From an uncultured Pseudomonadales bacterium (GTDB lineage: Bacteria > Patescibacteriota > Microgenomatia > UBA1400 > MFAQ01), in NCBI GenBank assembly GCA_964513845.1, contig CAZENT010000003.1:70809-134808 (forward strand): DNA of 64,000 nucleotides, in the 5' to 3' direction. The notes beneath the pieces are model-generated. The model did not search any database. It had not been told where the DNA came from and saw nothing but the letters and a program-made list of their open reading frames with translations. Below, piece after piece: positions 18,420 through 61,201 of the stretch (its first letter is position 1; every line of letters begins with the position of its first letter). Position numbers and translations under genes: made by a program.

Positions 18420-18430
18420 AAAGAAAAATA

Positions 18431-21040: not shown

Positions 21041-21046
21041 AATATT

Positions 21047-21229
21047 CCTTCTTTTCTATTATTTGTCATTTAGTATTTTGTGACGTCGCCAGGGCGACCG
21101 TCGGTTCCTATTTTCTTGATTCTCGTCCGCTCATCGCGTAGACTCGCAGACAGTAGTCTTGCCATCAAGAAAATTACGGACGTGCGACTTATTGTCAAAA
21201 ATACTAAATTGCCAAACGAAAAGAGAAAT
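21047..21229 (+). repeat. intergenic palindromic repeat, family A copy 2
   Basis: Aligns end to end with copies 1 and 3. The hairpin loop differs (gtcgcc-ag-ggcgac) while the stem is kept. Confidence 0.8.
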
Positions 21230-33240: not shown

Positions 33241-33288
33241 GTTATTAACAAATTATTGATACAAGAACTTCGTTGTATCTATTTGAAA

Positions 33289-33390
33289 AACCGAACGCTA
33301 TTTGGCCTGCGCCAAATTCGTTCTTGTTTGCAGTCAAAAACTTTTTGAATACAAAAAGACCGGGCTTTTTGACTTGCGCAATATTTTTCA
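33289..33390 (+). repeat. structured repeat family B, copy 1 (upstream of thrS)
   Basis: Hairpin 1 is atttggc-ctgc-gccaaat. Hairpin 2 has outer stem gtcaaaaa/tttttgac and inner stem ctttttg-aata-caaaaag, with a bulge accgggc and a tail ttgcgcaatattttt. Stems covary with the other copies. Confidence 0.8.
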
Positions 33391-35197: not shown

Positions 35198-35214
35198 AGG
35201 CCTGACAAAATATC

Positions 35215-35394
35215 TCTCCTTTTCCTCTTTTGTCATTTAGTATTTTATGACGTCGCAAAAGCGACCGTCGGTTCCTATTTTCTTGATTCTCGCCCGCTCA
35301 TCGCGTAGGCTCGCAGACAGTAGTCTGAAAATCAAGAAAATTACGGACGTGCGACTCATTGTCAAAAATACTAAATGCCAAACGGAAAGAGAAA
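35215..35394 (+). repeat. intergenic palindromic repeat, family A copy 3
   Basis: About 90% identical to copies 1 and 2, with a hairpin variant gtcgc-aaaa-gcgac. It lies between thrS and tyrS. Confidence 0.8.
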
Positions 35395-35457
35395 TTTTTT
35401 TCTATTGGACTAGTACATAGAAACGAACAATATCGATATAGATGAACCACGCCTAGA

Positions 35458-46325: not shown

Positions 46326-46512
46326 CGTTTCCCTTAACCGGACCTGTCGCCTTATACCTTTTCAAAAACCGGATGCTCTTTCGCCCTGCGCGAAAGCCAT
46401 CCATTACTTGCAGCCGAAAATTCTTAAGACTACTTAAGAAACCAGGCTTTTCGGCTTTGCGCAATATTTTTGAAAAAGTAGTAAGGCTTCGGTCTATATT
46501 GTTTCGGGAAAC
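46326..46512 (+). repeat. structured repeat family B, copy 2 (long form; upstream of leuS)
   Basis: Hairpin 1 is ctttcgc-cctgc-gcgaaag. Hairpin 2 has outer stem gccgaaaa/ttttcggc and inner stem ttcttaag-acta-cttaagaa, with accaggc and ttgcgcaatattttt. It shares 5' and 3' extensions with copy 4. Confidence 0.8.
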
Positions 46513-46663: not shown

Positions 46664-49003
46664 ATGGCTTATGACTTTAAAGAGGTAGAAAAAAAGTGGG
46701 TGGAGAAGTATGACGGTTTTGATGGTTACAAAGCAAAGGATTTTGAAAGCAAACCTAAAAAATATGTACTACAAGAGTTTCCTTATCCATCCGGAAGCGG
46801 GCTTCATGTAGGACACGCTTTTTCGATGACCGGGGCAGATGTTTATGCGCGATTTATGCGCATGAACGGATTTAATGTGATGTTTCCCATGGGCTGGGAT
46901 GCTTTTGGGCTACCAACGGAAAATTACGCCATCAAAATGGGAGTGAAGCCTCAGGTAATTACAAAAGAAAATACGGCGAAGTACAAAGCTCAAATGCGAA
47001 GGCTGGGATTTTCCTTTGACTGGAGCCGAGAAGTGGACACGACTGACGCTGATTACTATAAATGGACACAATGGATTTTTACGAAACTATTTGAAAAGGG
47101 TTTGGCCCACAAAGAAGAAATGGCGATTAACTGGTGCCCTAAAGATAAAATTGGCTTGGCCAATGAAGAAGTGGTCGATGGGAAATGCGAGCGATGCGGA
47201 ACGGAAACTGAGAGAAGAACAATATCCCAATGGGTGGTGAAGATAACAGCTTATGCCGATAAGCTTTTGGAAGGACTTAAAAATACAAATTTTATCGATA
47301 AAGTTAAAGCGGCACAGACGAATTGGATAGATAAACGTATTGGTGCAAAGATTAAATTTCGATTGGCGGAGATTGCCACGTCGAGTACTCCTCGCAATGA
47401 CGATTATATTGAAGTGTTTACCACAAGACCAGACACTCTTGAGGGCGTGACATTTATGGTGATTGCACCGGAGCATAAATTGGTGAGCGGTTTGATGGAA
47501 AATGAAGAAGTCAGAAAATACGTGAGTGAAACGAAAAAAAAGAGTGAGATGGAAAGAACCGAGTTGTCTAAAGAAAAAACAGGTGTATTTTCTGGGCTGA
47601 TGGCGATTAATCCCGTAACTGGTCAAGAAATTCCGGTATGGATTGCCGATTATGTTTTGATTTCATATGGGACAGGAGCGATTATGGCTGTTCCAAGCCA
47701 CGATGAGCGAGATGAAGCTTTTGCTAATAAATATTCTTTGCCTATAAATAGAGAGTATGTGCCTGATATGAAGATGGTTGACGTGATTGTGGAAAAAGGA
47801 GTTGGAGAAAAAGCGGAGAACTATCATCTGCGTGACTGGATATTTAGCCGTCAACATTACTGGGGTGAACCGATCCCAATGGTAAACTGCCCTGTATGTG
47901 GTTGGGTAGCCGTTCCTGAAGAACAACTGCCGATACGCTTGCCTGAAGTAGAGAAGTACCTACCGACCGATACGGGAGAGTCACCTTTGGCGGCAATGAC
48001 CGATTGGGTAAACACAACATGCCCCAAATGCGGTGGAGAGGCTAAGCGAGAAACCGATACCATGCCAAACTGGGCAGGAAGTGACTGGTATTTTCTTCGA
48101 TACTGTGACCCAAAAAATGACAAGGCTTTGGCGGATATGGAAAAGATGAAGTACTGGATGCCGGTAGATGTATATATGGGTGGGGATGAGCACAACACAC
48201 TTCATCTGCTTTACTCAAGATTTATTTATCAGTTCCTTTGGGATCTGGGAGTTGTGCCAAAAGAAATTCCCGAGCCGTATATAAAAAGAATGTCGCATGG
48301 GGTAATTCTTGGCCCTGATGGAAACCGAATGAGTAAAAGTCACGGAAATGTAATTGTTCCGGATGCGGTGGCTGATATATATGGCACGGATGTACTGCGC
48401 GCTTACATGATGTTTATGGGGCCTTTTGACTCGACCATGGCGTGGAACGAGAGATCTTTGGTGGGAGTGAGGCGTTTTATGGAAAGACTATATTCACTGG
48501 TTGTAGAAAGTGCCGGTAAATATTCGGCCACAAACATCGAGGCTTTGAGAACTATTCATCGTTTGGTAAGGGGAGTGGGTGAGGATATTACAGAGTTTAA
48601 GTACAACACAGCCATTGCCAAAATGATGGAGGCAGTGAATGATTTGACGAAAAATAATACAGAGATTGCGAACACGGAACTATCCATTTTGGTTCGAGTA
48701 TTGGCTCCCTTTGCACCTTTTGTAGCTGAAGAAATGTGGAGCATCCTTGGGGGAGAGTTTAGTGTGCACACTAACGAGTGGCCAAAGTTTGACGAAAAGT
48801 ATCTGGTGAGTGAAACAATTATTTTGTCGGTACAGATTAATGGCAAACTAAGAGGAACTGTGGAGGTGTCTCCTGAGGCTGAAGAAGCAGAAGTGAAGAC
48901 GATAGCGGAGGCTCGGGAAAAAGTACAGAAATACTTATCTCAAGGCAAGGTAGTTAAAGTAATTTATATAAAAGGAAAAACGATTAATTATGTGGTTGTT
49001 TGA
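46664..49003 (+). CDS. leuS: leucyl-tRNA synthetase
   Basis: HVGHAF (HIGH), CP1 editing domain, KMSKS and zinc-binding Cys clusters, at 779 aa. Confidence 0.9.
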   Translation: MAYDFKEVEKKWVEKYDGFDGYKAKDFESKPKKYVLQEFPYPSGSGLHVGHAFSMTGADVYARFMRMNGFNVMFPMGWDAFGLPTENYAIKMGVKPQVITKENTAKYKAQMRRLGFSFDWSREVDTTDADYYKWTQWIFTKLFEKGLAHKEEMAINWCPKDKIGLANEEVVDGKCERCGTETERRTISQWVVKITAYADKLLEGLKNTNFIDKVKAAQTNWIDKRIGAKIKFRLAEIATSSTPRNDDYIEVFTTRPDTLEGVTFMVIAPEHKLVSGLMENEEVRKYVSETKKKSEMERTELSKEKTGVFSGLMAINPVTGQEIPVWIADYVLISYGTGAIMAVPSHDERDEAFANKYSLPINREYVPDMKMVDVIVEKGVGEKAENYHLRDWIFSRQHYWGEPIPMVNCPVCGWVAVPEEQLPIRLPEVEKYLPTDTGESPLAAMTDWVNTTCPKCGGEAKRETDTMPNWAGSDWYFLRYCDPKNDKALADMEKMKYWMPVDVYMGGDEHNTLHLLYSRFIYQFLWDLGVVPKEIPEPYIKRMSHGVILGPDGNRMSKSHGNVIVPDAVADIYGTDVLRAYMMFMGPFDSTMAWNERSLVGVRRFMERLYSLVVESAGKYSATNIEALRTIHRLVRGVGEDITEFKYNTAIAKMMEAVNDLTKNNTEIANTELSILVRVLAPFAPFVAEEMWSILGGEFSVHTNEWPKFDEKYLVSETIILSVQINGKLRGTVEVSPEAEEAEVKTIAEAREKVQKYLSQGKVVKVIYIKGKTINYVVV

Positions 49004-49010
49004 GATTGAT

Positions 49011-49033
49011 TGCCTGCGAGGAGACTCCTCGCA
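49011..49033. repeat. perfect 10-bp-stem palindrome cctgcgagga-gac-tcctcgcagg
   Basis: Seen directly in the sequence. A second copy, with a compensated G>A / C>T change in the stem, lies 57 nt downstream. Confidence 0.7.
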
Positions 49034-49090
49034 GGACTGGTGAGGCTAGAATTTGATTTATTAGAGGGGAATTTGTCTGTTTGTGCCTAC

Positions 49091-49113
49091 CTGCAAGGAG
49101 ACTCCTTGCAGGT
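49091..49113. repeat. perfect 10-bp-stem palindrome cctgcaagga-gac-tccttgcagg (second copy)
   Basis: Seen directly in the sequence. The palindrome is maintained by a paired substitution relative to copy 1. Confidence 0.7.
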
Positions 49114-49158: not shown

Positions 49159-49899
49159 ATGTTTAAAAATAAAAATTCTCTTTACGCACCGCTTTTGGTG
49201 GTGCTTTTGGTGGTGGCCTCGTTCTTCGTGGGCCGATTATCAGCCCAGGTTTCTGCTCTTAAAGGTGGAACTCCGACCGGAACAAATGCAAAAGCTGAGG
49301 TAACTCCAGCGGCCGCAACCGGTTCCAAAATCGCTGTAGCTGAATTGAAAAAAATGGCTAAGGATTTGGGAGTTGATGCAAAATCTTTTGACAAGTGTTT
49401 GGATGATGGCACAATGGCCAGTAAGGTGAGTGCTGAGGCTTCAGAAGGAAAAGGTTTTGGAATTTCCGGAACACCTTCATTCCTAATCAATGGAATATTA
49501 GTAGTTGGTTCTTTGCCACAAGCTGATTTCGAAAAAGTGATCGATGCTGAGCTGAAAAATGGCACGGGAGACAAGGTGGTACTTTCTTCGGGTGGAGAAG
49601 CTTTGAAGCGAGTAGCTAAAATCCCTTATGGTGTTGGATATATCAAAGGAAGTAAAGATGCCAAAATCAAAATCATGGAGTACACCGATTTTGAGTGTCC
49701 ATATTGTAACCGAGCTTTCCCCACAATCGAAGCTCTCTTGACTAAGTATGGCAATCAGATTAGTTTGGAGTATCGCAGTTTCCCTTTAGGTTTCCATGCT
49801 GACGCACAGAAAGCCGCAGAAGCTGCGCTTTGTGCAGGTGAGCAAGGAAAGTTCTGGGAGTTACACGACAAGATGTTTACCGTGATGGCTCAGAAATAA
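49159..49899 (+). CDS. DsbA-like thiol:disulfide oxidoreductase (membrane-anchored)
   Basis: N-terminal TM anchor and a thioredoxin fold with a CPYC active site. Confidence 0.65.
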   Translation: MFKNKNSLYAPLLVVLLVVASFFVGRLSAQVSALKGGTPTGTNAKAEVTPAAATGSKIAVAELKKMAKDLGVDAKSFDKCLDDGTMASKVSAEASEGKGFGISGTPSFLINGILVVGSLPQADFEKVIDAELKNGTGDKVVLSSGGEALKRVAKIPYGVGYIKGSKDAKIKIMEYTDFECPYCNRAFPTIEALLTKYGNQISLEYRSFPLGFHADAQKAAEAALCAGEQGKFWELHDKMFTVMAQK

Positions 49900-49921: not shown

Positions 49922-49948
49922 AAAAAGAGGGGGAGACCCCTCTTTTTG
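49922..49948. terminator. bidirectional intrinsic terminator (aaagagggg-gaga-cccctcttt)
   Basis: Perfect 9-bp GC-rich stem flanked by A5 and T5. It lies between convergent genes. Confidence 0.6.
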
Positions 49949-50034
49949 GTGGTTTGGAGAAATAAACTTGGGAAAACGATAGAGAGTATCTGTCATAGAT
50001 TGTTGAAAAAGAAAAGTTAAAACCGAAACGATAT

Positions 50035-50721
50035 TTATTGAAGTTTGAAAGTTTCGACTATTTGATCGAACAAATCTGTTTTGAGCGGATTCTTATCTCT
50101 TATTATAATAGCGAGCGTGCCCTTTCCATCATTTATTCTGGTGACGTAAGCTTTTGAGCGGAAGACGCCTGAATCGGTGGAGATGCCTGTGATTAGTGTG
50201 TAGTTTGTACCATTGAGATTTGTTTCGGTAATTGTTTTTTCTTCTAAACTCCAAGATTTAAAATTATTAAGGACTTTTTTCCAAACATCATCTGGGCTAA
50301 TATTCTCGTCAAGAGATAATACATCAATAAAACCCTCGATGGTTATTTTCATTAAGAAATCTTTTTCTATGCCTCCTGGGTAAATGTCGATTAAATTTGA
50401 TTGATCGGTTGCTTTGTTATTTTTAGAATCAAAACTTTCTTCAGAAATATTCCAATTCGAAGGATAACGAATTTCGTACCCTAAAAGATTGTTTTGATAT
50501 GTGGTCCATGATTTAGTGTCATCATGTCTTTTGTAGTTGTCTTCTTGGAATTTTTGTTCTCCAGTATATGGTTGGCCAAAAGATATGTTTTGTAGTTTGC
50601 TGTTTATCTGTTCAAAATTTAATGAATAGACTGCTAAAGAAACCACTAACCCAAAAAACAAAATGCATGATACGGGTGAGTGTTTTTTAATTTTCGTTTT
50701 CATTGATTGTGTAGGTTGCAT
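50035..50721 (-). CDS. hypothetical secreted/membrane-anchored protein
   Basis: N-terminal signal anchor. It is the last gene of a 5-gene minus-strand operon. Confidence 0.4.
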   Translation of the reverse strand: MQPTQSMKTKIKKHSPVSCILFFGLVVSLAVYSLNFEQINSKLQNISFGQPYTGEQKFQEDNYKRHDDTKSWTTYQNNLLGYEIRYPSNWNISEESFDSKNNKATDQSNLIDIYPGGIEKDFLMKITIEGFIDVLSLDENISPDDVWKKVLNNFKSWSLEEKTITETNLNGTNYTLITGISTDSGVFRSKAYVTRINDGKGTLAIIIRDKNPLKTDLFDQIVETFKLQ

Positions 50722-51268
50722 CGTTTGTAGCAGTGTTTAAAACTGTAATGATGGATGCGTTGAGAGGGCTGCCATCATATTTGCGGATATCTTCTACTGT
50801 GGTAATGACAACATTATTTTTAATTTTTAGATCGCTGGGGGAAAGTTTTTTAAAAATTCCTGTTTCCGTCTTTCCAGAAAAAACTGGACTTGATGGGGGA
50901 ACATGAGTAATTGTAGTATCTTCGTTTATGATTAAGGTTATCTTGGTGGTTCCAATTGAAGAGGGGACTTCAATAACAAGTTGTTTTTTTTCGATTTCTG
51001 AAATGACACCTGTAAGTGAGTAAACAGGGTTTGATATTTCTAGATATTTACTGTTGTTAGCTTCAGATAGATTCTCTGTGTTCGAATGTATGCGAGTGGT
51101 GAGAGTCAGATTGTTTCGATACTTGAGGAATAATAGAACAACTGTAATTACTAAAATAATGATTAAAGGAATGGATATTTTTATGATGAGGTCAAAAATA
51201 TCATTTTCCTTGTTTGAGGTTACTGGCTCGTGGGTGGATGGCTGTTGAATTAAGTAATTTTGGTCCAT
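50687..51268 (-). CDS. hypothetical membrane-anchored protein
   Basis: Single TM helix near the N terminus. It overlaps the downstream gene. Confidence 0.4.
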   Translation of the reverse strand: MDQNYLIQQPSTHEPVTSNKENDIFDLIIKISIPLIIILVITVVLLFLKYRNNLTLTTRIHSNTENLSEANNSKYLEISNPVYSLTGVISEIEKKQLVIEVPSSIGTTKITLIINEDTTITHVPPSSPVFSGKTETGIFKKLSPSDLKIKNNVVITTVEDIRKYDGSPLNASIITVLNTATNDATYTINENEN

Positions 51269-51292
51269 TTTTATGTTCTTCTTAATTCAGAT

Positions 51293-51976
51293 TTAATTAC
51301 AGTTGCCAACGATAAGATCTCCCCCTGTAGTGTAATAAACAGCTGTTCCTGTAACCGAAAGAGTACTATAGCGAGCAGCACCAACTGACTTGCCGTAGGT
51401 TCCAGAAGAGATGTTGTGAGCTCCGTAACATTTGTACATGACTACACCTCCACAAGATCTTCCATTGGAGTTTACGTAAGTGTCGGTTTGTATGGTACTA
51501 TCAGACCAGTGAACGGGGTGCCCAGAAAGAGGAACGTCGCAGAAAAGGTTAGTTGTATAACTAAAATAACCAGAGTAATGCCAAACGAGGTCATCTTGTC
51601 CTGCATGTGTGGTCCATGTAGGCCAACGAGGGCTACATGTACCTACTGGATTAACACCGGCAATTCCAACTCTTTTACTACTGACTGTAGATGGAAGATT
51701 GGCGTTGCCATAATCTGAACTGCAGGCACCTCCTGATGTAAAAGTGGTGCAATCTAAGAAGCTTCCCGTGCAAGTTGAGCTATTTGAACAAGTTTCCGGA
51801 CAATCTGAACCACACATATAACAACTGCCACATTGAACATAATTTGATCCACAACAACAAACAATGTCTTGACCACAACCTCCACAAGCTCCTCCGCAAA
51901 TTTCGGCACTTATTGAGGTCGTATTGCTAAGAAATGCTCCTACTGTGATGATGATTGCTAGTATGCGAATCGTCAT
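51293..51976 (-). CDS. secreted cysteine-rich protein (about 20 Cys in the first 60 mature residues)
   Basis: Signal peptide followed by CGGACGGCGQDIVCCCGSNYVQCGSCYMCGSDCPETC..., then a Cys-containing domain of about 120 aa. Confidence 0.45.
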   Translation of the reverse strand: MTIRILAIIITVGAFLSNTTSISAEICGGACGGCGQDIVCCCGSNYVQCGSCYMCGSDCPETCSNSSTCTGSFLDCTTFTSGGACSSDYGNANLPSTVSSKRVGIAGVNPVGTCSPRWPTWTTHAGQDDLVWHYSGYFSYTTNLFCDVPLSGHPVHWSDSTIQTDTYVNSNGRSCGGVVMYKCYGAHNISSGTYGKSVGAARYSTLSVTGTAVYYTTGGDLIVGNCN

Positions 51977-53836
51977 TTAATTAGTTGAATTCTCTAATTC
52001 TTGAAGTCGAAGTTCGAGGTTGTTGAGTCTGTTTTTTAGTTGTTGGTTTTCAATTTTTAGTGAGTCGATTTCTTTCTTGTGATTTTTCATCTCAGCTAGA
52101 AGCAAGACTCCAAGTTTTTCGTAATCGACATTGGCAACATTTCTAGTGCCATCGCTCAGTGTTAGTTCTGGATACACCTTGAACACTTCTTCTGCAATGA
52201 GTCCGAACTGGCGTCCACCGGAAAGAGATTTTCCTAGCTGTTTGTATTTTTCTTTGTAGTCATATGTTTTGGGTTCAAGTTCATAAATTCTACTTGAATC
52301 TAAAACCATTGGAACAATGTTTTCTTTGTAATATTTGGATGATCCTCCTGCATACAAACTGCCGACCACATGAATTTTGTAAGTCGGAGCTGTTGTACCA
52401 ATGCCGACGTTGCCGGTACCGTTTGGCATTATGGCAAAGTGCTGGTTTGTGCCAGTAATGATATCTGAAGAAATTCCTGAAAAAACTACTGATCCAGTTG
52501 TAAATGTGGGTCCGTTGTTGGTAACGATGACTCCAGTTCCTGTTTCATCGCTGATGGAATAGCGCACGTTGGCTGAAGTAATAGTAGTGGTTAATTTGCC
52601 TCCTGTGGTAGTACTAACGAGTCTGTTTGCAGTTATTCCAGAGAAGGTTATAGTTCCTGATGATGTTAAGCCTGTTAAGCCTGTGGCAGCCCCTGCGGAT
52701 GATACATCCCAGTTTGATGAGTTTACCGCGACAGTGTTTGACCCCCCGCCAATACTAATCGCTCCGGTTGAAGTACCAGTGTTGATATTGGTTGCGTAAA
52801 TTGATGAAGAATTTAAATTTATATTTCCATACGAAGCATTAAATGAGCCGACAACGTCTAGTATTGCTTCTGGAGATGCGGTACCAATGCCGACATTGCC
52901 ATTAGCAGTTATTCGTAAGCGTTCGTTACCGCCGGTAGCAAACCACATAGGTGTATTTTCTGTGTTCCAAAATTCAGCGCCTCCCGAATAGTGATAATCA
53001 ATCCACAAGCCATCACTTCCTGTCGATCCAGAGTCACCATTTATGAGTTGAATGGCTGATGAATTAGCACTGGGTGCAAAAATAGTAAGTGGAGTGTTTG
53101 GGCTGGTTGTACCAATGCCGATTTTTCCACCTGTGTAAAGGTTGCCTGTTGCGGGAGAGAGACCTGCTAAACCGTTTTCTGGACAAATGGCACCAGCACA
53201 AATCAGTAGATTCCTGTTTACTGTTTGAATATCTCCAGCGGCGGCAAGAGTATCTGTGACGCCAGAAATGGCGAATCCCATTCGAAGAAGTTCGCGATCA
53301 GAGGTGGCATAAGTTCCAGTTGGGGTATTTACATCGGCATCGGCTATCGTCATGTCACTAATGTTTTCGCGATATGTCCATGTTGCGTCTGGGCAAAGAT
53401 TGGTGGTTTGATCTGCCAAAACCATTTGAATCTGGGTGATTGGAGAATCGAGTTTGAGAGTATTTCCATAGGGGTCTGTGGTGATATTTATTGGGTCGGG
53501 AACTCCGTCTAGGTCAGCATCCTTGACGCATAGTTTGCCTTGAGCTATTTTTCCGCTTGTGTTGATATAGATTATGCCTCGCTCAGTTTCAGTATCCTGA
53601 ATTACTATCTTGTATGGAGAGGGTGGAAAAACAAGAGTTTTGTGTAGAGTGATAGCGGTGCCAGGTGTAATAATCAAATCTCCATCAGCTACTCCGTTAA
53701 CATCTTCATAAACTACACAACTATTGTTAAAAGTAATATTTCCTCCTGAAGTAAAATTACAGTAGTCGTAGGCAGAAATGTGTTTGGGGAAAATGAAAAT
53801 TAGGGAAAGGGAAAGAAAAAAGAATATTTTTTTCAT
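51977..53836 (-). CDS. secreted tail-fibre-like protein with C-terminal intramolecular-chaperone (peptidase S74-like) domain
   Basis: Signal peptide, a long Gly/Thr/Ser/Asn-rich beta-repeat region, then a C terminus ...KENIVPM...YDYK...GLIAEEV...VDYEKLGVLLLAEMKNHKKEIDSLK plus a coiled coil. This is the pattern of phage tail-spike autochaperone domains. Confidence 0.55.
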   Translation of the reverse strand: MKKIFFFLSLSLIFIFPKHISAYDYCNFTSGGNITFNNSCVVYEDVNGVADGDLIITPGTAITLHKTLVFPPSPYKIVIQDTETERGIIYINTSGKIAQGKLCVKDADLDGVPDPINITTDPYGNTLKLDSPITQIQMVLADQTTNLCPDATWTYRENISDMTIADADVNTPTGTYATSDRELLRMGFAISGVTDTLAAAGDIQTVNRNLLICAGAICPENGLAGLSPATGNLYTGGKIGIGTTSPNTPLTIFAPSANSSAIQLINGDSGSTGSDGLWIDYHYSGGAEFWNTENTPMWFATGGNERLRITANGNVGIGTASPEAILDVVGSFNASYGNINLNSSSIYATNINTGTSTGAISIGGGSNTVAVNSSNWDVSSAGAATGLTGLTSSGTITFSGITANRLVSTTTGGKLTTTITSANVRYSISDETGTGVIVTNNGPTFTTGSVVFSGISSDIITGTNQHFAIMPNGTGNVGIGTTAPTYKIHVVGSLYAGGSSKYYKENIVPMVLDSSRIYELEPKTYDYKEKYKQLGKSLSGGRQFGLIAEEVFKVYPELTLSDGTRNVANVDYEKLGVLLLAEMKNHKKEIDSLKIENQQLKNRLNNLELRLQELENSTN

Positions 53837-53838
53837 AG

Positions 53839-54369
53839 TTATTTGATTAACATAGGCTGGGAGGTTTTGTTGCCCAACTCGGTAGTAATTTCAAAAGAGA
53901 CATTGTATATTTTTTCGTAGGTGTCCGAGAATTGATATGTGGTGGACCATATACCATTGGTGGTGGAACCTGAGATTAGCTTCATGGGGTGAGAGGTGGT
54001 TTGGGCATCAGTGTTGAGAGTGAGGCTGACAGTGTTGATAGGCTCTTTGCTTTGAATGGTAGCGGAAACGGTTTGTTTGGTGTCTTTGGCTGGATCAAGA
54101 GGGTCATAGGTGATGGAAGTGACGGTCGAATCTCCCCAAGATCCTTGAACATTGTAAGTTTGTTTGCCGTGAGGAAGGATAAGGTAGGGAGTGGGAGCGG
54201 CGACAGTGCCAGGGGGTAGCTTTTTATTTGTAATTGGAGTGGTTTTTGTAAGAGTCGGGGTGGGTAATTTCCAACCAAAAGGATTGGCAAGAAGAAGGAA
54301 AAAACCTAAAAGACCAAAAGAGACTCCTAAAATTACGTAGAGAACGGGAGATATTTTTCCTGAGTTCAT
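53839..54369 (-). CDS. hypothetical secreted protein (first gene of the operon)
   Basis: N-terminal TM/signal segment, then a T/S/P-rich region. Confidence 0.4.
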   Translation of the reverse strand: MNSGKISPVLYVILGVSFGLLGFFLLLANPFGWKLPTPTLTKTTPITNKKLPPGTVAAPTPYLILPHGKQTYNVQGSWGDSTVTSITYDPLDPAKDTKQTVSATIQSKEPINTVSLTLNTDAQTTSHPMKLISGSTTNGIWSTTYQFSDTYEKIYNVSFEITTELGNKTSQPMLIK

Positions 54370-54448
54370 AGCCTAGTATCAATATAGAGAAAATTGTGAT
54401 AATAGTCAATTATTTTGGGGGAGAGAAATGCTTTGCTCGATACCTAGT

Positions 54449-54566
54449 ATAAGAGCTTGCTCGTCTTCTTTTCCATAATAATTATTATGGAAATATCATC
54501 CTGTGCTTCCTCTTATATCTGCTCCTATAATTGCTTTACCATTATAGGATTGATATAATACAGGCT
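54449..54566 (+). promoter_or_regulatory. conserved promoter/operator block, family C copy 2 (perfect 23-nt palindrome ttccataataa-t-ttattatggaa plus TATAAT box) in a divergent promoter region
   Basis: About 85% identical to 46541-46663. It sits between the minus-strand secreted-protein operon and the plus-strand 7TM/ATP-grasp operon. Confidence 0.6.
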
Positions 54567-55451
54567 ATGAAAAAAGCATTGATGGGACTTATTTTTTTGA
54601 TGGTTGTCGGGGCATTTTTTGGGACACCAAAATCATGGGCTATTTCTGAAACTGCTTTACCTAAAATAGTACCTACTGAAACAGCAACAGTGTCGGCAGA
54701 GACAGCTCCTGTAAAGGAAATTGACTTAACTGTGCCTAAACAAGAGGGTGATCGTTTGACTAAACTGATGAATGGACAAAAATTATCAGGATGGTGGGGC
54801 AAGGATGTTTTGAAACTGGCTATGCGTAAAGCTGTGTCTGAAGGAGTGTCTCCCAATACCCTGGTACTGCTTTTCTTATTTCCTCTAGTGGCAGCTTTGG
54901 TGGCTTTTTCTCGCCAAGTGGTCGGTGTGTCTGGATTTGGCATGATTACACCTGCCTTACTTTCGGTGGCCTTTTTGTCTACCGGAGGCTTGGTGGGCTT
55001 AGTGCTTCTGTTCTTTATTCTTGGCGTGGCAACATTGGGAAGATTGTTAATCAAGAAAGTCAAAGTGCCATATTTTCCAAAACTAGCTATTCTGATCTGG
55101 GTGGTTTCAATGGCTGTTTTGGTTTTGCTTTTGATGTCGCCGATGATTGGCCTTGAAAGACTAATGAGCGTGGGAATTTTTCCCATTATGCTGTTTGTGC
55201 TTTTGGCTGAAACTTTTATCGAAGCTCAGATTACCAGAAGTTTGGCCACTTCAATGTGGATGACAATCGAAACAGTGATTTTGGCTTTGATTGCTTATAA
55301 ATTGATGAGCGCTCCTTGGATTCAGTCTCAGGTATTGCTTCATCCGGAAATTACCGTAGTCGGAATTTTGGGTCTGGACTATTTGATCGGTACTTATAAG
55401 GGATTGAGATTAATGGAGATTTGGAGATTTCGTAAATTATTGAGAAAATAA
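54567..55451 (+). CDS. polytopic (about 7 TM) membrane protein with N-terminal signal peptide, associated with an ATP-grasp operon (7TM-transglutaminase-like partner?)
   Basis: MKKALMGLIFLMVVGAFFGTPKSWA signal, an extracytoplasmic region of about 90 aa, then seven hydrophobic helices. Genomic context matches the 7TM component of RimK-like amidoligase systems. Confidence 0.45.
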   Translation: MKKALMGLIFLMVVGAFFGTPKSWAISETALPKIVPTETATVSAETAPVKEIDLTVPKQEGDRLTKLMNGQKLSGWWGKDVLKLAMRKAVSEGVSPNTLVLLFLFPLVAALVAFSRQVVGVSGFGMITPALLSVAFLSTGGLVGLVLLFFILGVATLGRLLIKKVKVPYFPKLAILIWVVSMAVLVLLLMSPMIGLERLMSVGIFPIMLFVLLAETFIEAQITRSLATSMWMTIETVILALIAYKLMSAPWIQSQVLLHPEITVVGILGLDYLIGTYKGLRLMEIWRFRKLLRK

Positions 55452-55464
55452 TATTGAGATTTTT

Positions 55465-56775
55465 ATGATTAGACTGAACGACATACTAGGGCTTAATGCT
55501 CGATCGGCTGACTATTTGCTTTTAAACAAAAAGTCCGCCCGAAAAAGAGCAGACGACAAACTCTTGACAAAGAGAATGCTGAAACGCGCCCATGTAGCTC
55601 ACCCTAGGCTGTTGGGGGTGCTGAAAGATGCTCATGAAGTGAGAGATTTTGACTGGAGCAAACTAACCGGAGGATTTGCCGTAAAACCAGTTCAGGGTTT
55701 TGGCGGACAGGGAATAGTGCTCGTGAAGCGCCAGGCTAAAGAAGAGGGAAAATTTTGGACTGTAGACGGAAAGAAAATAAGTATAGAAGATCTCGTGCTG
55801 CACACTGTAGATATTGTCGAGGGGAAATATTCACACAATAATTTACCTGACAAAGCGATGATCGAAGAGAGAATTACCATTCATCCTAAGTTTAAAAAAT
55901 TAGCTGTAGGTGGCGCTCCTGATGTGAGAGTAATTGTTTTTAACAATATTCCTGTGATGGCGATGTTACGCTTACCAACTGAAGAAAGTGCCGGAAAGGC
56001 CAATCTTCATCAGGGTGCTATTGGCCTGGGAATTGATATGGCAACAGGGATTACAACCTATGGAGTATATAAAAATGGCCAGATAAAGTATTTTCCGGAT
56101 ACAAATAAAAAGGTAAACGGGATTGCTATTCCTTACTGGAACAAAATTCTTCTGATGGCAGTAAAAACACAAAAAGTGTCGCACTTGCCATATTTGTCGG
56201 TGGACATGCTTATAGATGAGAAAAAAGGACCTGTGGTTTTGGAGTTAAACGATCAACCAGGACTTTCTATCCAGCTTGCGAATATGGCCGGACTCCGCAG
56301 AAGACTTCAAAGAGTTGAAGGGTTGGAAGTTGACAATGTGGAAAAGGGGGTAAAGATTGGAAAAGCATTGTTTGCCAGTAAATTTGCCAATAGGGTACAG
56401 TTTTTGGGAGAAGACAAACCAGTATTGGGAATATTTGAAACAGCTCAGATTAAGACGGGAAAAAAGAAGTGGACTGAGGTGCGATGCAAGATCGATACCG
56501 GTGCTAGAAGCACTTCAATTGATCAAAGTTTGGCTTTGGAATTGGGCTTGCTCCGCCCCGAAAATGTGCTTTGGACAAAGAAAGTTAAAAATTCTCTGGG
56601 TTTTGAGGAGAGAACAATCATCGGGATTACGATGAAAATAAAGGGAAAGACGATAAGGACACGAGCTAGCCTTACCAATAGGGCAGAGCTAAGACGCCAG
56701 TTTTTGATTGGTAGACGAGATTTGAAAGATTTTGTGGTTAATCCGGGGTTGATTAGAATTAGAAAGAAAAAATGA
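55465..56775 (+). CDS. ATP-grasp (alpha-L-glutamate ligase-related, RimK-like) fused to a C-terminal retropepsin-like aspartyl peptidase domain
   Basis: The N-terminal ~300 aa have the RimK-related ATP-grasp layout (MIRLNDILGLNARSADYLLLN...ADDKLLTK...). The C-terminal ~130 aa carry KIDTGARSTSID (D-T-G-A catalytic motif) as in RimB/PF05618-type peptidases. Confidence 0.5.
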   Translation: MIRLNDILGLNARSADYLLLNKKSARKRADDKLLTKRMLKRAHVAHPRLLGVLKDAHEVRDFDWSKLTGGFAVKPVQGFGGQGIVLVKRQAKEEGKFWTVDGKKISIEDLVLHTVDIVEGKYSHNNLPDKAMIEERITIHPKFKKLAVGGAPDVRVIVFNNIPVMAMLRLPTEESAGKANLHQGAIGLGIDMATGITTYGVYKNGQIKYFPDTNKKVNGIAIPYWNKILLMAVKTQKVSHLPYLSVDMLIDEKKGPVVLELNDQPGLSIQLANMAGLRRRLQRVEGLEVDNVEKGVKIGKALFASKFANRVQFLGEDKPVLGIFETAQIKTGKKKWTEVRCKIDTGARSTSIDQSLALELGLLRPENVLWTKKVKNSLGFEERTIIGITMKIKGKTIRTRASLTNRAELRRQFLIGRRDLKDFVVNPGLIRIRKKK

Positions 56776-56823
56776 TAGGAAAAAATATTTTTGGATATTT
56801 CTTAAATTTTCTTCCATACAAAA

Positions 56824-56910
56824 AACCGGACGCTATTTTGCCTGCGCAAAATCCGTCCTTACTATCAGCGAAATTTTCTTTGAATACAAAGAAACCGGGC
56901 AATTTCGCTT
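56824..56910 (+). repeat. structured repeat family B, copy 3 (inside the ATP-grasp operon)
   Basis: Hairpin 1 is attttgc-ctgc-gcaaaat. Hairpin 2 has outer stem agcgaaatt/aatttcgct and inner stem ttctttg-aata-caaagaa, with accgggc and ttgcgcgatatttttt. Confidence 0.8.
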
Positions 56911-57036
56911 TGCGCGATATTTTTTGTATCGGACGAAAATTACGAAATGTAAAATATTTTCTTAATTGGGAGTGCACTTCAAAACATAATATATTATTGA
57001 ATAATTTATCAAGCAGATTAGTGTTAAATTAAGTAT

Positions 57037-57951
57037 ATGAAAATAGCATACCTGCACAGAATTACTTTCGACGAGAGTGAACAGAGATTTTTGGAAGAAG
57101 CCAAAAATCTAGGGATTGAGCTGGTGTTGATCAAATACAGACAGCTAAGAATGGTTGATGGAAAAATTCTTTTTGAAGACACTGATATGAAAGACTTCGA
57201 TGGCTGGTTTTTCCGCTCTGTGGGGTCTGAACTGGAGTGGAGTAAGCTCTTACAGCTTTATGCCAAGAAACACAATATTCCTGTCGTTGACGAGTATTTG
57301 AAAACCGAAGGACCTTTGCGCCGTTTTAAAAGCGTGATGACTTGGCAACTGGTTGAGGCAGGAGTGAAGTATCCAAAATCTCAGTATATCGAGACTTGGA
57401 ATGACTTAGAGAAGTTTTTGAGAGAGGCAAGTTTTCCTTTGATTGTGAAACTTTCTCAGGGTGGAAGACATGGAATGGGAACTTTTTGGATTAGAGAGTT
57501 TGAAGATTTGAACAAACTAAAAGTAATTTTGGAAGAGAGAAAAGAAAAAGCCAAAAAGAAGGGTGAAAAAGTGCCGATGATTAGGGGATTTTTGGTTCAA
57601 GAATATATTGAGAATGATGGAGATTTCCGAGTGGTGACGGTTGGATATAAATGTATTGGAGGATTTAAAAGACAGGTAAAAGAGGAAAAATTGATTTTGA
57701 ACAAGAGTCAGGGCAATTCAATTGGATTAAAAGAAGTGCCTGAAGCTGTGGTGAGAACCGCAGAGGCTGCGGCAAGGGCATTGGAAGTGGAAGTGGCCGG
57801 GACGGATTTGGTTATCAGTAAGAAAACCGGAGAAGTTTACATAATTGAAGTGAACGAAGCACCGCAGTTTAAGGTGTTTGAAAAGAGAACTAAGATTAAT
57901 GCGCCAAGAAAAATCTTGGAGTACTGTATAGAAAAATTTCGAAAATTATGA
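57037..57951 (+). CDS. RimK-family ATP-grasp ligase (alpha-L-glutamate ligase-like), paralog 1
   Basis: MKIAYL start, ATP-grasp B/C domain motifs (IVKLSQGGRHGMGTF, VQEYIE, AGTDLV...EVNEAPQF), at 304 aa. Confidence 0.75.
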   Translation: MKIAYLHRITFDESEQRFLEEAKNLGIELVLIKYRQLRMVDGKILFEDTDMKDFDGWFFRSVGSELEWSKLLQLYAKKHNIPVVDEYLKTEGPLRRFKSVMTWQLVEAGVKYPKSQYIETWNDLEKFLREASFPLIVKLSQGGRHGMGTFWIREFEDLNKLKVILEERKEKAKKKGEKVPMIRGFLVQEYIENDGDFRVVTVGYKCIGGFKRQVKEEKLILNKSQGNSIGLKEVPEAVVRTAEAAARALEVEVAGTDLVISKKTGEVYIIEVNEAPQFKVFEKRTKINAPRKILEYCIEKFRKL

Positions 57952-57999
57952 AAATGAATATTTCCGTATTCCTGCCGCACTCACTAACAGGGCTTATCA

Positions 58000-58126
58000 C
58001 CCTAGTTCTTTGTTGGCCACCGATAATTTGTCGCTTCCTGCGAGCGACAATCATCTCGATTCTCGACTTGAATTTCCACTTCGTGGAACCAAGCAATTCA
58101 AGTCTGCGAAGCGTGGCACAAAGAAC
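58000..58126 (+). repeat. 127-nt palindromic element, family D copy 1 (intergenic, between the two RimK genes)
   Basis: Identical at 126 of 127 nt to 60696-60822. Contains hairpins gtcgc-ttcctgcga-gcgac and ttccac-ttc-gtggaa. Confidence 0.85.
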
Positions 58127-58191
58127 AATGGTTCACGTCCTTTATGATATTCGTGCGTATGAAATAGTTGGAAAATATTCATAATTAATAT

Positions 58192-59106
58192 ATGAAAAAA
58201 GTATTAATACTGACCAGATTTAGAGGGGAGTATGAACCAAGGCGATTGGCTGAGGAAGCTGCTGCTTTTGGATATGAAGTGGATAGAGTGAATTATGAAC
58301 ATGTACGATTGGGAGTAAGCCCTTTGGGTAAACCGGTAATTGATCTAATGACCGGGAAGAAGCTGGAAGAGTACGACTTGGTAATTCCTAGGGCAGCAAC
58401 AAAACGAGGCGGTGAATCGATGTTGGGAGTGAAATCGGTAATTTTGGAGTATATCGAAAAACTGGTAGATAACAAGCCAACAGTAATCAATGGTGAAAGT
58501 TTTCGATTTTATCCTTTGATGGGAAAACTGGAACAGGGAATTCTTTTGGCTCAGGAGGGATTGTCGGTGATTCCTTTTGCTTCATTTAATGGTCATCGGG
58601 GATGGAAAAGATATCTGGAAATTCTGGCAAAAAGAAAAAATGCCTTTGTTCCAGTGATGGTAAAGGCTCGTTTTGGCAGTCATGGAAAGAACGTAAAACT
58701 GGCCGAAAACATTGAAAGATTGATAAAACTATCGCAAAGATATAGTGAGGGAGATGTATTGATTCAACCCGTGATTGTGGTTCGCAGATGGTATCGAGTT
58801 CTGGTACTTAATGGAGAGGTTTTGGGAATGATGAAACATAGACAGAAAAATAAGTTTCAGACTGAGGCAATTCAGACAGAAACAGCTTTACTGAAACCAA
58901 AATTTACCAAAGAACAAATGGAGGAGTTGAAAATTTTGGCCATTAGAGCGGCGAAAGTGCTTAAGGCTGATTTTGCCGGACTAGACATCGCATGGGATGA
59001 AAACTCAAAAGGGTGGAGAATTTTCGAAGTAAACAGAACAGCTCAGTTCCGATGGTTTGAGAAAGCTTATCCGGAAATAAACGTGGCACAGGCGATGGTT
59101 TTGTAA
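58192..59106 (+). CDS. RimK-family ATP-grasp ligase, paralog 2
   Basis: ATP-grasp motifs (VMVKARFGSHGKNV, IQPVI, AGLDIAWDE...FEVNRTAQF), at 304 aa. Confidence 0.75.
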   Translation: MKKVLILTRFRGEYEPRRLAEEAAAFGYEVDRVNYEHVRLGVSPLGKPVIDLMTGKKLEEYDLVIPRAATKRGGESMLGVKSVILEYIEKLVDNKPTVINGESFRFYPLMGKLEQGILLAQEGLSVIPFASFNGHRGWKRYLEILAKRKNAFVPVMVKARFGSHGKNVKLAENIERLIKLSQRYSEGDVLIQPVIVVRRWYRVLVLNGEVLGMMKHRQKNKFQTEAIQTETALLKPKFTKEQMEELKILAIRAAKVLKADFAGLDIAWDENSKGWRIFEVNRTAQFRWFEKAYPEINVAQAMVL

Positions 59107-59373: not shown

Positions 59374-59547
59374 GACCTGTCGCCTTATACCTTTTCAAAA
59401 ACCGGATGCTCTTTCGCCCTGCGCGAAAGCCATCCATTACTTGCAGCCAAAAATTCTTGAGACTACTCAAGAAACCAGGCTTTTTGGCTTTGCGCAATAT
59501 TTTTGAAAAAGTATTAAGGCTCCGGTCTAGATTGTTTTCGGGAAACG
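59374..59547 (+). repeat. structured repeat family B, copy 4 (long form)
   Basis: Near-identical to copy 2, with compensatory changes in both stems of hairpin 2 (outer gccaaaaa/tttttggc, inner ttcttgag-acta-ctcaagaa). Confidence 0.8.
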
Positions 59548-59635: not shown

Positions 59636-61201
59636 ATGAAAGGATGGGTGATTTTTTTTGTTGCTTTGGCGATTTATGGAGTGAGTGTTTTTGGAGAGTT
59701 TGTGCAGGACGATTTTGTCGTGATTAAAACTGCTCCAGATATGGGAAGTGTGAGTGCTTTGGGTGCAGTATTTACACGACCATATTATTTTATGAATGAG
59801 GGTGGGGGATCTGGAGCGTATCGACCGATAACGAGCCTTAGTTTTTACTTGAATACTTTGTTGACCGGCAAAGAACCTTGGGGATTTAGACTGGTAAATA
59901 TATTGCTTTATGCTGGAGTGTGTGTTTTGGTGTTTGAGCTGTTGAAAAAATACACCACAACAAAGATGGCTTTTTGGGGAACAATCGTATTTACAGTATT
60001 GCCAATACATACAGAAGCGGTAAATAATATTGTGGGGAGGGCGGAAATACTATCACTGGGATTGTTTTTGTTGGCTGTTTTGGCACAGATGAGAAGCAGG
60101 TGGGAGCTGTCGGCTATACTATTTTTGTTGGCGTTACTGACAAAAGAAATCGCAATTGTGGGCTTGCCGATTTTAATTTGTATTTTGATTTGGGGAAGGG
60201 AAAATAAAGATACAAAAAGGGGAGTTGTTTTCTTTTATATTTTGGTCACAGGATGTTATCTGATTTTACGAACGATGGTGTTGGGCAATGAATCAATGGG
60301 GAATGAAGCAACGATAGTGGAAAACCCATTAAAGTTTTTACCAACAAACCAGCGAGTAATGAATGCCTTTTCGCTGGTTCCGTTTGGAGTTGGGAAAATG
60401 ATATTTCCATGGCATCTTAGTTACGATTATTCCTTTAGTCAAATAAAGTTGGCGACCAGCTGGTTTGATATTCGAGTATTGTTGGGGATTTCTATGTCAC
60501 TTTTGTCTATTGGAAGTTTGTTGACAAAACTGAGAAAAAATAAGCTGTGGATCATGGGGCAAGCATTGTTTTGGGGGTCGCTGATGGTAACGGGAAATTT
60601 TTTGTTTGCTGTGGGGACTATTTTTGGGGAAAGGCTTTGGTTTTGGACGAGTTTAGGAATGGTTTTGATGATTACCTCACTGTTTCCCTTTCGTTCTAAT
60701 TCTTTGTTGGCCACCGATAATTTGTCGCTTCCTGCGAGCGACAATCATCTCGATTCTCGACTTGAATTTCCACTTCGTGGAACCAAGCAATTCAAGTCTG
60801 CGAAGCGTGGCACAAAGAACAAGAACTTCAAGGAACAATTCTTGGTAATCATTATCATGATGCTGGCTGGGAGAAGCTTTGTGCGGAATTTGGATTGGTT
60901 GTCGCAGGAAAGATTGTTTATTCATGATGCAAATTATGTAACGGGAAGTGTGATGGCGCAGACAAATAAAGCAGCGATGCTACTGATTAATAATGATTTT
61001 GAAGGAGGGAATCTGGCACTTGAGAAAGCAGAAAAGATCTATCCGAATTATCCGATGCTGATAAATAATCGAGGAGCGTATTACTTACATTTAGAGGAAT
61101 ACGACAAGGCTAGAGAAAAATTTGAAGAGTGTTTGAGGGTAAACCCAAGATTTTCTTTCTGTGAAAGTAATCTTATGTTGGTGAAGATTAACAAAGATTG
61201 A
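59636..61201 (+). CDS. TMTC/PMT-like polytopic membrane glycosyltransferase-like protein with C-terminal TPR repeats, carrying an in-frame family D insertion
   Basis: N-terminal FVQDDFVVI and YRPITSLSFYLN motifs (the DUF1736 / TMTC-PMT-like signature), about 9 TM helices and a C-terminal TPR (YPNYPMLINNRGAYYLHLEEYDKAREKFEECLRVNP). Residues LLATDNLSLPASDNHLDSRLEFPLRGTKQFKSAKRGTKN are encoded by the 127-nt repeat. Confidence 0.5.
   Translation: MKGWVIFFVALAIYGVSVFGEFVQDDFVVIKTAPDMGSVSALGAVFTRPYYFMNEGGGSGAYRPITSLSFYLNTLLTGKEPWGFRLVNILLYAGVCVLVFELLKKYTTTKMAFWGTIVFTVLPIHTEAVNNIVGRAEILSLGLFLLAVLAQMRSRWELSAILFLLALLTKEIAIVGLPILICILIWGRENKDTKRGVVFFYILVTGCYLILRTMVLGNESMGNEATIVENPLKFLPTNQRVMNAFSLVPFGVGKMIFPWHLSYDYSFSQIKLATSWFDIRVLLGISMSLLSIGSLLTKLRKNKLWIMGQALFWGSLMVTGNFLFAVGTIFGERLWFWTSLGMVLMITSLFPFRSNSLLATDNLSLPASDNHLDSRLEFPLRGTKQFKSAKRGTKNKNFKEQFLVIIIMMLAGRSFVRNLDWLSQERLFIHDANYVTGSVMAQTNKAAMLLINNDFEGGNLALEKAEKIYPNYPMLINNRGAYYLHLEEYDKAREKFEECLRVNPRFSFCESNLMLVKINKD
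60696..60822 (+). mobile_element. family D palindromic element copy 2, inserted in frame within the coding region 59636-61201
   Basis: A 127-nt stretch matching 58000-58126 at 126 positions. The host ORF reads through it without a stop, between the TM domain and the TPR domain. Confidence 0.8.

Follow-up and report, generated by a model that had tools for sequence, protein, structure and literature searches.

Fibre proteins that carry an S74 domain are known from bacterial cells as well as from phages. The mosaic adhesive trimeric (MAT) fibres of Bdellovibrio bacteriovorus (an S74 subgroup, e.g. Bd3182) are cellular, not viral, proteins which, according to the report describing them, undergo S74 self-cleavage and possess an invariant N-terminal domain behind the signal peptide as well as swapped tips (PMC10769870). 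In phage S16, receptor specificity is carried by gp38, a separately encoded monomer that caps the gp37 trimer (PMC6851490), while the wall polysaccharide of Streptococcus mutans is bound, at its polyrhamnose backbone, by the Bsp repeats of AtlA (bioRxiv 10.1101/2020.06.26.173716). Features recalling each of these systems were found in an operon of five minus-strand genes within a 64,000-nt stretch of contig CAZENT010000003.1 (the window, whose numbering is used throughout). On balance, this operon probably builds a MAT-like, exported adhesive surface fibre in a bacterium of the Microgenomates group of the Candidate Phyla Radiation (CPR), a function inferred computationally from an S74 domain, matches of the fibre shaft, export signals, cellular flanks, mosaicism between strains, and purifying selection. 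A preliminary description of the sequence had left open a surface or host-interaction module and a phage-derived remnant; the former fits best, the closest solved relatives being the MAT adhesive fibres.

The second gene of the operon (nt 51977–53836) encoded the fibre, a protein of 619 aa. Its C-terminal part (aa 499–619, nt 51980–52342, minus strand), in which an S74-type intramolecular chaperone/auto-processing domain had been suspected, matched Peptidase_S74 (Pfam PF13884) at aa 499–559 with 34.6 bits against a cut-off of 22, covering profile positions 1–57 of 58. The predicted catalytic dyad, Ser499 and Lys504, lay within S-S-K-Y-Y-K-E-N-I with the S-x4-K spacing kept, except that Ser replaced Asp at position 2 of the consensus S-D-x-x-x-K. 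Of 54 homologues in which the motif could be recognised, 32 carried S-D and 16 carried S-S, suggesting that the S-S form is a recurrent subtype and not a decayed copy. In an AlphaFold2 model built from 82 homologues, the predicted local distance difference test score (pLDDT) was about 85–92 for aa 30–170 and 84–98 for aa 500–619, and poor in the shaft, as expected for a trimeric fibre modelled as a monomer; a 47-residue helix (aa 572–618) followed the S74 core. Foldseek comparison with the PDB returned as top match the intramolecular chaperone auto-processing (ICA) domain of MyRF (7dc3; E = 2.5e-4, probability 1.00, TM-score 0.58–0.61), with phage chaperones 3gud and 3gw6 matching more weakly (E about 0.35–1.2). 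It also returned the Bdellovibrio fibres Bd1334, Bd3182, Bd2133, and Bd2439 by their beta-helix fibre regions, the Bd3182 chains matched being the C-terminal beta-helix domain of that protein and not an S74 domain. BFVD yielded 176 matches at E ≤ 1e-3, mostly S74/ICA phage proteins, and the C-terminus of phage S16 gp37 matched the S74 region at E = 1e-3 (residues 134–198 in PDB 6f45 with aa 541–603 of the fibre). Judged by profile score, dyad, and predicted fold, the C-terminus of the fibre is a genuine Peptidase_S74 chaperone domain with its dyad intact, as the preliminary description had proposed.

The 5′ part of the gene (nt 53192–53836, minus strand) encoded a signal peptide (aa 1–22) and a beta-rich N-terminal domain (aa 23 to about 215) with six cysteines and the motif C-V-K-D-A-D-L-D-G-V-P-D, conserved across strains. 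The confidently modelled beta-rich domain spanned aa 23 to about 175 behind the signal peptide, and Foldseek found no convincing PDB match for it. Between the two terminal parts lay a Gly/Thr/Ser-rich shaft (aa 216–498, nt 52343–53191, minus strand), the most divergent part of the protein, in which a capping-loop motif, G-x-[VI]-G-I-G-T-x-x-P, occurred at aa 237, 313, and 475. The shaft was matched by PHROG tail-fibre families (E = 3e-9 and 1.5e-8) and, in a phmmer search of the PDB, by 8ond (Bd2133, E = 6.6e-5) and 8oml (Bd1334, E = 5e-4); these beta-helix alignments centred on the motif R-I-T-x-x-G-N-V-G-I-G-T-x-x-P. The last residues of the predicted mature fibre would be those of a shaft repeat, …G-S-L-Y-A-G-G; it would have no tip domain of its own, so that a binding protein encoded by another gene could be accommodated.

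In their order of reading, the five genes encoded proteins of 176 aa (nt 53839–54369), 619 aa, 227 aa (Cys-rich; nt 51293–51976), 193 aa (nt 50687–51268), and 228 aa (nt 50035–50721), all on the minus strand. They were arranged head to tail with intergenic gaps of 2, 0, 24, and -35 nt, the ATG of the 227-aa gene directly following the fibre stop codon. The last gene probably starts at Met7 (nt 50703), which would shrink the overlap to 17 nt and is where the homologue in a related contig (L001) begins. Sec-type signal peptides were recognised in the 619-aa protein (...PKHISA|YDY) and in the 227-aa protein (...TSISA|EICGG), with both cleavage sites placed by eye, whereas each of the 176-, 193-, and 228-aa proteins had a single N-terminal hydrophobic anchor by hydropathy. 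Coordinates, gaps, and hydropathy thus agree with the earlier observation of abutting or overlapping genes that all carry a signal peptide or anchor, and the spacing is that of one co-transcribed operon for exported proteins. A promoter-like sequence, TTGACT-17-TATATT (nt 54381–54409, minus strand), preceded the first gene by 12 nt and fell within the 161 nt that separate the operon from a divergently transcribed Rlo-like gene cluster; it is weak, with 10 of 12 consensus positions matched, and promoter-like sites in the consensus scan showed no excess over shuffled sequence. At the opposite end, a symmetric terminator-like hairpin, AAAAA-GAGGGG-GAGA-CCCCTC-TTTTT (nt 49922–49947), separated the operon from a convergent DsbA-like gene; it reads as bidirectional in the sequence, and the scan gave its plus-strand version. 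The dN/dS ratio (nonsynonymous to synonymous substitution rates) was 0.08 for the Cys-rich gene (versus L004), 0.26 for the 193-aa gene, 0.14 for the 228-aa gene, and 0.11 for the 176-aa gene, so that every accessory gene tested is under purifying selection. Since intact orthologues in related contigs accompany these low ratios, the genes are real and not low-complexity artefacts.

The operon was flanked by cellular genes, encoding MurB, MurA, leucyl-tRNA synthetase (LeuRS), three further aminoacyl-tRNA synthetases, DsbA, the Rlo-like cluster, a PMT/TPR glycosyltransferase, and MnmA. LeuRS of the window shared 82% identity with a protein assigned to a "Microgenomates group bacterium" and 68–69% with those of Collierbacteria, and related contigs extend to 0.7–0.9 Mb. 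The organism is accordingly placed in the Microgenomates group, as a CPR bacterium with a small genome, in line with the episymbiont-type organism suggested previously. About ten related contigs, with LeuRS 71–84% identical, had the same chromosomal position filled, and synteny was kept in L001–L003, L004, L033, L034, L035, the P0127 contig, and L038–L045. In all related contigs, the slot between DsbA and the Rlo-like cluster contained an anchored protein of 164–199 aa followed by a large exported protein, and what came next varied. The window has, after the 176-aa anchored protein, the 619-aa fibre (S-S-type S74) and then the 227-aa Cys-rich, 193-aa, and 228-aa proteins. In L004, where the anchored protein lies beyond the contig, a large protein of at least 365 aa (S-S) is followed by a 229-aa Cys-rich protein, a 193-like protein, and a 228-like protein; L001 has proteins of 199 aa (anchored), 773 aa (S-S), 243 aa (Cys-rich), 344 aa, and 222 aa; and L034 has 176 aa (anchored), 873 aa (S-S), 237 aa (Cys-rich), and 349 aa. 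The P0127 contig encodes a 164-aa anchored protein, a 789-aa protein with S74, a 331-aa protein, and a 260-aa Cys-rich protein, whereas L035 encodes a 179-aa anchored protein, a 565-aa protein (S-S), a 180-aa Cys-rich protein of another type, and a 133-aa protein. Sister strain L033 has a 176-aa anchored protein and a 795-aa protein with an S-D-type S74 domain, followed by a 146-aa protein only. In L038–L042, a 183-aa anchored protein precedes a protein of 1473–1489 aa that is of the Gly_rich_2 type and has no S74 domain, with nothing further downstream. This last pair, located at nt 13249–17670 of L038 and present also in L039, L041, and L042, includes 26 cysteines in the large protein, which shows no similarity to the window fibre; LeuRS of L038 is 76% identical.

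Comparison with L033 by blastn located the exchange. The flanks were 88–93% identical and the 176-aa gene together with the fibre N-terminus 76% identical, whereas nt 49964–53197 (minus strand), comprising the fibre from about aa 213 onwards and the genes for the Cys-rich, 193-aa, and 228-aa proteins, had no DNA similarity, its place being taken in L033 by a different distal fibre region, whose S74 domain carries S-D-K-R-L-K, and by the single 146-aa anchored protein. The fibre N-terminal domain shared 65% identity with that of L033, 49% with L035, 45% with L001, and 44% with L034, and identity of the 176-aa partner fell in the same order (89%, 66%, 58%, and 52%, with 33% for L038). In contrast to this order, the C-terminal 150 residues were 61–77% identical in L035, L001, and L034, and L033 gave only a local match (49% over 27% of the module); identity of the shaft to any relative was 24–34%. 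No template/variable repeat pairs of a diversity-generating retroelement, nor tandem arrays, were detected in or near the fibre gene, and the variation therefore looks like cassette exchange. These findings indicate a fixed chromosomal slot whose contents are exchanged between related genomes.

The 227-aa protein consisted of a signal peptide (aa 1–24), a Cys/Gly/Ser-rich module (aa 25–86, nt 51719–51904) with 14 cysteines, a core (aa 114–172, nt 51461–51637), and a family-specific C-terminal part with a conserved penultimate cysteine (…VGNCN). The count of about 20 cysteines in 60 residues reported previously was too high, there being 14 in aa 27–86 and 19 (8.4%) in the whole protein. A word-index search of 5.8 billion proteins gave three relatives, and exhaustive profile searching over 1.84 billion representative proteins gave four members beyond the window protein, of which two full-length ones were newly added. 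P0002 came from the word-index search, whereas locus inspection contributed L034_237 as well as L035_180, a partial relative. Eight family members were identified altogether. A family-specific DNA pattern found one contig only in the JGI metagenomes, namely L001, which was already in the set, and no relatives were found in IMG/VR. The homologue in L004 was 75% identical and had all 14 N-terminal cysteines at the same positions. Across the family, 3 of these 14 were invariant, as were C114, C175, C183, and the penultimate C226. So few invariant N-terminal cysteines argue against a fixed knottin or bacteriocin scaffold, the comparison suggested for their spacing in the preliminary description, and the sequences favour a disulfide-rich (or metal-binding) linker-like module. 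Conservation of the open reading frame, on which its reality had been made to depend, is evident from the eight members and the low dN/dS ratio.

It was the core, not the Cys-rich module, that was best conserved, and to it a relationship could be assigned. The family profile retrieved 339 proteins, nearly all of them multi-repeat PF08481 (GBS_Bsp-like) proteins; large Firmicutes proteins, over 330 of them, gave repeated matches to profile positions of about 100–180, often together with GH25, CHAP, or NlpC/P60 hydrolases, and in a contig scan with the Cys-rich alignment the matches listed comprised Firmicutes Bsp-repeat loci only. Alignment of the six-member family with ten Bsp repeats by hhalign (96.9%, E = 1.9e-10) covered 55 columns, corresponding to aa 114–172 and including W-P-T-W…G-Q-D-D-L-V-W-H. 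With the Pfam hidden Markov model of PF08481, the 227-aa protein gave no match at E ≤ 0.1, and family members scored 11–16 bits against a cut-off of 31.6. By profile comparison, the core is thus a remote homologue of the Bsp repeat core and not a family member in the curated sense. Relative to the streptococcal and clostridial wall hydrolases that carry PF08481, such as AtlA, the shared pattern is W-P-T-W-x5-G-Q-D-D-L-V-W-H … P-L-S-G-H … Y-V-N; the hydrolases have 2–11 tandem repeats and a catalytic domain, whereas the window protein has a single copy without a catalytic domain, flanked by the Cys-rich N-terminal module and the family-specific C-terminal extension, and belongs to a CPR bacterium instead of a Firmicute. 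By analogy, a glycan-binding role of the core is a reasonable prediction. The protein, which had seemed unassignable, can therefore be placed through its core, while its Cys-rich module still has no family in Pfam, NCBIfam, or the PDB.

Of the three anchored proteins, that of 176 aa was the constant partner, encoded directly upstream of the large surface protein in all related loci. It possessed a membrane anchor (aa about 5–32), a Pro/Thr linker, and a beta-rich C-terminal domain, making it a candidate for a cell-proximal base. The 193-aa protein had a short cytoplasmic N-terminus, an anchor (aa about 25–48), and a beta-rich ectodomain, of which relatives have one to three copies; its homologues were the 344-aa protein of L001 (48% identity), the 349-aa protein of L034 (37%), and one in L004 (60%, tblastn), and proteins of similar build follow the fibre gene in L005, L007, L033, L035, and L036. 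The 228-aa protein, with an anchor at aa about 17–35 and a globular ectodomain, was confined to the closest loci, those of the window, L004 (72% identity), and L001 (64%). Profile searches of Pfam, PHROGs, NCBIfam, and the PDB gave nothing significant for the three proteins: there was no relative of the 176-aa protein in Pfam, NCBIfam, or the PDB, a faint DUF5666 hint (E = 0.05) for the 193-aa protein, and, for the 228-aa protein, a PsbP_2 match below threshold (14 bits versus a cut-off of 27) and no PDB relative. No second fibre-like gene and no similarly Cys-rich gene were found elsewhere in the window.

Likeness of the fibre to the MAT proteins extends to the order of signal peptide, beta-rich N-terminal domain, repeat shaft, and C-terminal S74 chaperone/protease, to the capping motif (G-N-[VL]-G-[IL]-G-T-x-x-P in MAT, resembling the shaft motif of the window), and to the retention of the N-terminus while distal parts are exchanged in evolution. 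Direct sequence or fold matches were obtained with Bd2133, Bd1334, Bd3182, and Bd2439, whereas the N-terminal domains are likened by their layout. There are also differences. The organism belongs to the CPR and presumably has a single membrane, versus a diderm predator; the fibre has 619 aa versus about 1,000 aa; its motif is S-S-x-x-x-K versus S-D-x-x-x-K; the gene occupies one fixed exchangeable slot, whereas a MAT gene is one of 21 dispersed paralogues; and the operon contains three anchored partners and one Cys-rich partner, such genes not figuring in the text sections of the MAT report (PMC10769870). The same S74 domain, as judged by profile, dyad spacing, and predicted fold, is present in phage fibres and spikes (K1F endosialidase 3gw6, GA-1 3gud, and T5 pb1) and in the eukaryotic MyRF ICA (7dc3). 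The window fibre differs from the phage proteins in having a Sec signal peptide and no virion context, and in sharing only 30–35% identity with any phage protein in GenBank, confined to aa about 426–594.

Links between the parts of the locus emerged from the surroundings of the Cys-rich gene. In 7 of the 8 loci bearing one, it starts 0–6 nt past the fibre stop codon or overlaps it, the P0127 contig being the exception with one gene in between. An S-S-type S74 module was present in all eight Cys-rich loci with the fibre C-terminus available, and the Cys-rich gene was absent from the S-D-type fibre locus L033 and from the Gly-rich locus L038. The N-terminal CCCGS…C..C..C module and the ending …TCN recur in L035_180, but its middle part is different, which suggests a constant module joined to an exchangeable one. 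Separately, in an unrelated context, contig L036 (JGI 3300020153, Ga0197142_1000361) encodes at nt 8910–10112 a 400-aa protein that follows an S-S-type S74 fibre and combines an anchor, a 176-like domain, a segment similar to the fibre N-terminal domain (C-M-T-D-A-D-A-D-G-Y-P), and a tail with 18 cysteines and G-C-N at its end; in the fibre of L036 itself, a membrane anchor stands where the N-terminal domain would be. This fusion supports a joint function of the anchor, fibre N-terminal, and Cys-rich parts. The order of genes resembles that of S16/T2-type phage tips (gp37 and gp38, PDB 6f45, PMC6851490), with a fibre gene directly followed by a gene for a small Gly-rich protein. However, gp38, which is built of a helical attachment domain and a polyglycine sandwich, has no sequence similarity to the Cys-rich protein and uses polyglycine motifs in place of cysteines; the Cys-rich protein matched nothing in GenBank phages or the PDB, only gene position and Gly-richness being alike, and the parallel is one of analogy only.

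Taken together, the following course of assembly is proposed for a MAT-like surface fibre. The fibre would be exported by the Sec system, after which the S74 domain would drive trimerisation of the shaft and then release itself by cleavage in front of Ser499, so that the mature fibre would comprise aa 23–498. The N-terminal domain would stay cell-proximal, probably held via the 176-aa anchored protein, and the variable distal fibre together with the accessory proteins, including the Bsp-like lectin candidate, would set which foreign surface is bound, which in the case of an episymbiont would be the envelope of its host. A more elaborate version, held to be possible but rather doubtful, is a three-tier host-recognition device consisting of the 176-aa base, the S74-matured trimeric fibre, and the Cys-rich protein as cap or decoration, its host range being reset by cassette swaps in the one slot. 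The conserved Cys-rich module might then dock to the fibre after release of the chaperone, and the exchangeable Bsp-like lectin domain might read the wall polysaccharide of the host, as a cellular counterpart of phage gp37/gp38.

Several observations weigh against the surface-fibre proposal or parts of it. The residue following the catalytic Ser of the fibre S74 motif is Ser in place of the usual Asp. The Bsp similarity is remote and below threshold in Pfam, with 55 of about 92 columns aligned, and an AlphaFold2 model of the Cys-rich protein from a four-sequence alignment reached a pLDDT of 29.6 and was not used. As the loci are related, their co-occurrence of genes is partly inheritance, and co-variation of the Cys-rich gene with the fibre C-terminus could reflect plain physical linkage, because recombination breakpoints in the shaft would carry everything downstream as one block. 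Moreover, the S-S-type fibre of L037, which stands in a different context, lacks a Cys-rich neighbour, and the 176-like protein also precedes the non-homologous Gly_rich_2 giant of L038, so that it is not specific to the fibre N-terminal domain.

Among the other explanations, the one that survives best, although rated as rather unlikely, is that the fibre and its partners are directed at the producing cell itself, forming its own surface layer or mediating self-aggregation, with the Bsp-like protein binding the cell's own wall glycan. In Firmicutes, Bsp repeats hold hydrolases on the producer's own wall polysaccharide; three of the five operon proteins are anchored in the producer's membrane; the Cys-rich tail of L036 is fused to a membrane-anchored 176-like protein, suggesting a cell-proximal location; and the neighbouring Rlo-like cluster concerns the envelope and osmotic tolerance (PMC12239564). 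Yet strains whose flanks are 88–93% identical differ by replacement of the distal fibre and the accessory genes, a turnover typical of receptor-binding or antigenic proteins and not of structural parts of the envelope, and the closest characterised relatives, the MAT and phage fibres, bind foreign cells. An improbable alternative is that the Cys-rich protein is an independent passenger, a disulfide-rich toxin or bacteriocin or a metal-binder, physically unconnected with the fibre: the CxxC and CCC patterns of its N-terminal module, which lacks a family assignment, recall metal-binding or knotted peptides, and L033 and L038 do without the gene, but the position of the gene at the fibre stop codon, its restriction to S-S-type loci, the variable N-terminal cysteines, and the peak of conservation in the Bsp-like core all speak against it. 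Finally, a leftover tail-fibre module of a degraded prophage, for which the S74 domain and shaft repeats typical of phage tail fibres and distant S74 matches in Streptomyces, cyanobacterial, and Pelagibacter phages might be cited, is highly improbable in view of housekeeping flanks that are free of phage genes for 10 kb or more in both directions, the same position being filled in related contigs, the Sec signal peptide of the fibre and export signals on every partner, which virion proteins do not need, and phage matches in GenBank confined to the S74 part with no close relative of the fibre in IMG/VR, so that an ancient phage origin of the S74 domain is likely but the locus is no remnant.

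The genes bordering the slot were themselves of interest. The DsbA-like gene (nt 49159–49899, plus strand) matched Thioredoxin_4 (E = 1e-23) and, as described previously, lies beside the operon; the link then drawn to disulfide-rich cargo is not upheld, since the gene adjoins the slot in all loci, including L033 and L038 without a Cys-rich gene, and it was rejected as specific evidence of a dedicated partnership. Its product was circularly permuted: residues 61–135 aligned with the C-terminal half of a solved DsbA (4pwp, 166–241), and residues 150–241, bearing CPYC, with the N-terminal half (63–152). Order and length were the same in L001, L033, and L035, and the permutation is therefore not an assembly error. 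On the other side, the divergent Rlo-like cluster (nt 54531–59106, plus strand) encoded a seven-transmembrane (7TM) inactive-transglutaminase protein (RloB-like), an ATPgrasp_ST ligase carrying a fused retropepsin-like C-terminus (aa about 338–436), and two RimK-type ligases. NCBIfam connects these genes with the Rlo system, which in Pseudomonas was described as conferring tolerance of osmotic stress (PMC12239564). The cluster adjoined the fibre slot in all Microgenomates relatives examined; functional coupling of the operon to the ATP-grasp/7TM cluster was not adopted, the synteny being lineage-wide and the cluster a separately described system.

Several repeats were located in the window. 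Two copies of a 171-nt intergenic repeat, 94% identical (nt 46341–46511 and 59374–59544), bracketed 13 kb of sequence that runs from LeuRS as far as the second RimK gene, with the fibre operon inside; the repeat may be a mobile-element end, a regulatory element, or a small RNA. A repeat of about 190 nt had three intergenic copies, 78–97% identical (nt 18425–18613, 21040–21228, and 35207–35395), as did a 90-nt repeat with 61–77% identity (nt 33286–33375, 56821–56910, and 62255–62344); neither gave an Rfam family at gathering score. A 127-nt repeat, 99% identical, was situated between the RimK genes (nt 58002–58128) and inside the open reading frame at nt 59636–61201 (nt 60696–60822), which encodes the PMT/TPR glycosyltransferase-like protein. 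Between LeuRS and DsbA, a GC-rich palindrome, CCTGCGAGGAGACTCCTCGCAGG, occurred in two copies 77 nt apart (nt 48996–49035 and 49073–49112), which look like terminators or a repeated hairpin element. In addition, a tRNA-Ile gene with anticodon TAT was predicted by ARAGORN at nt 6643–6717 (plus strand; Rfam tRNA, 69.8 bits). In most bacteria, AUA is read by a lysidine-modified CAU tRNA, and a TAT anticodon is an uncommon choice.

For the attachment and host choice of CPR/Patescibacteria, type IV pili are the mechanism studied in the literature retrieved, in which no description of S74 fibres in these bacteria was found, whereas databases label many such proteins "tail fiber domain-containing". 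What is most likely new here is an S74 MAT-like fibre in a CPR bacterium, encoded in an exchangeable operon whose other products are anchored partners and a Bsp-like, Cys-rich protein that is itself novel. The locus is a candidate specificity determinant with predicted S74 self-cleavage and a predicted lectin-like partner, and its slot, bounded by DsbA and the Rlo-like cluster, provides a fixed genomic address at which strain-resolved metagenomes can be inspected and compared with the hosts present. The 176-aa protein is a candidate membrane partner that may anchor a MAT-like N-terminal domain, anchoring being a matter that the Bdellovibrio work (PMC10769870) does not settle; if true, the three-tier arrangement would name a candidate for the surface element to which MAT-type fibres are anchored. 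The Bsp-like core would likewise extend the Bsp wall-glycan-binding repeat outside Firmicutes. Since related strains swap most of it, the operon is a plausible determinant of the surfaces to which the cell adheres.

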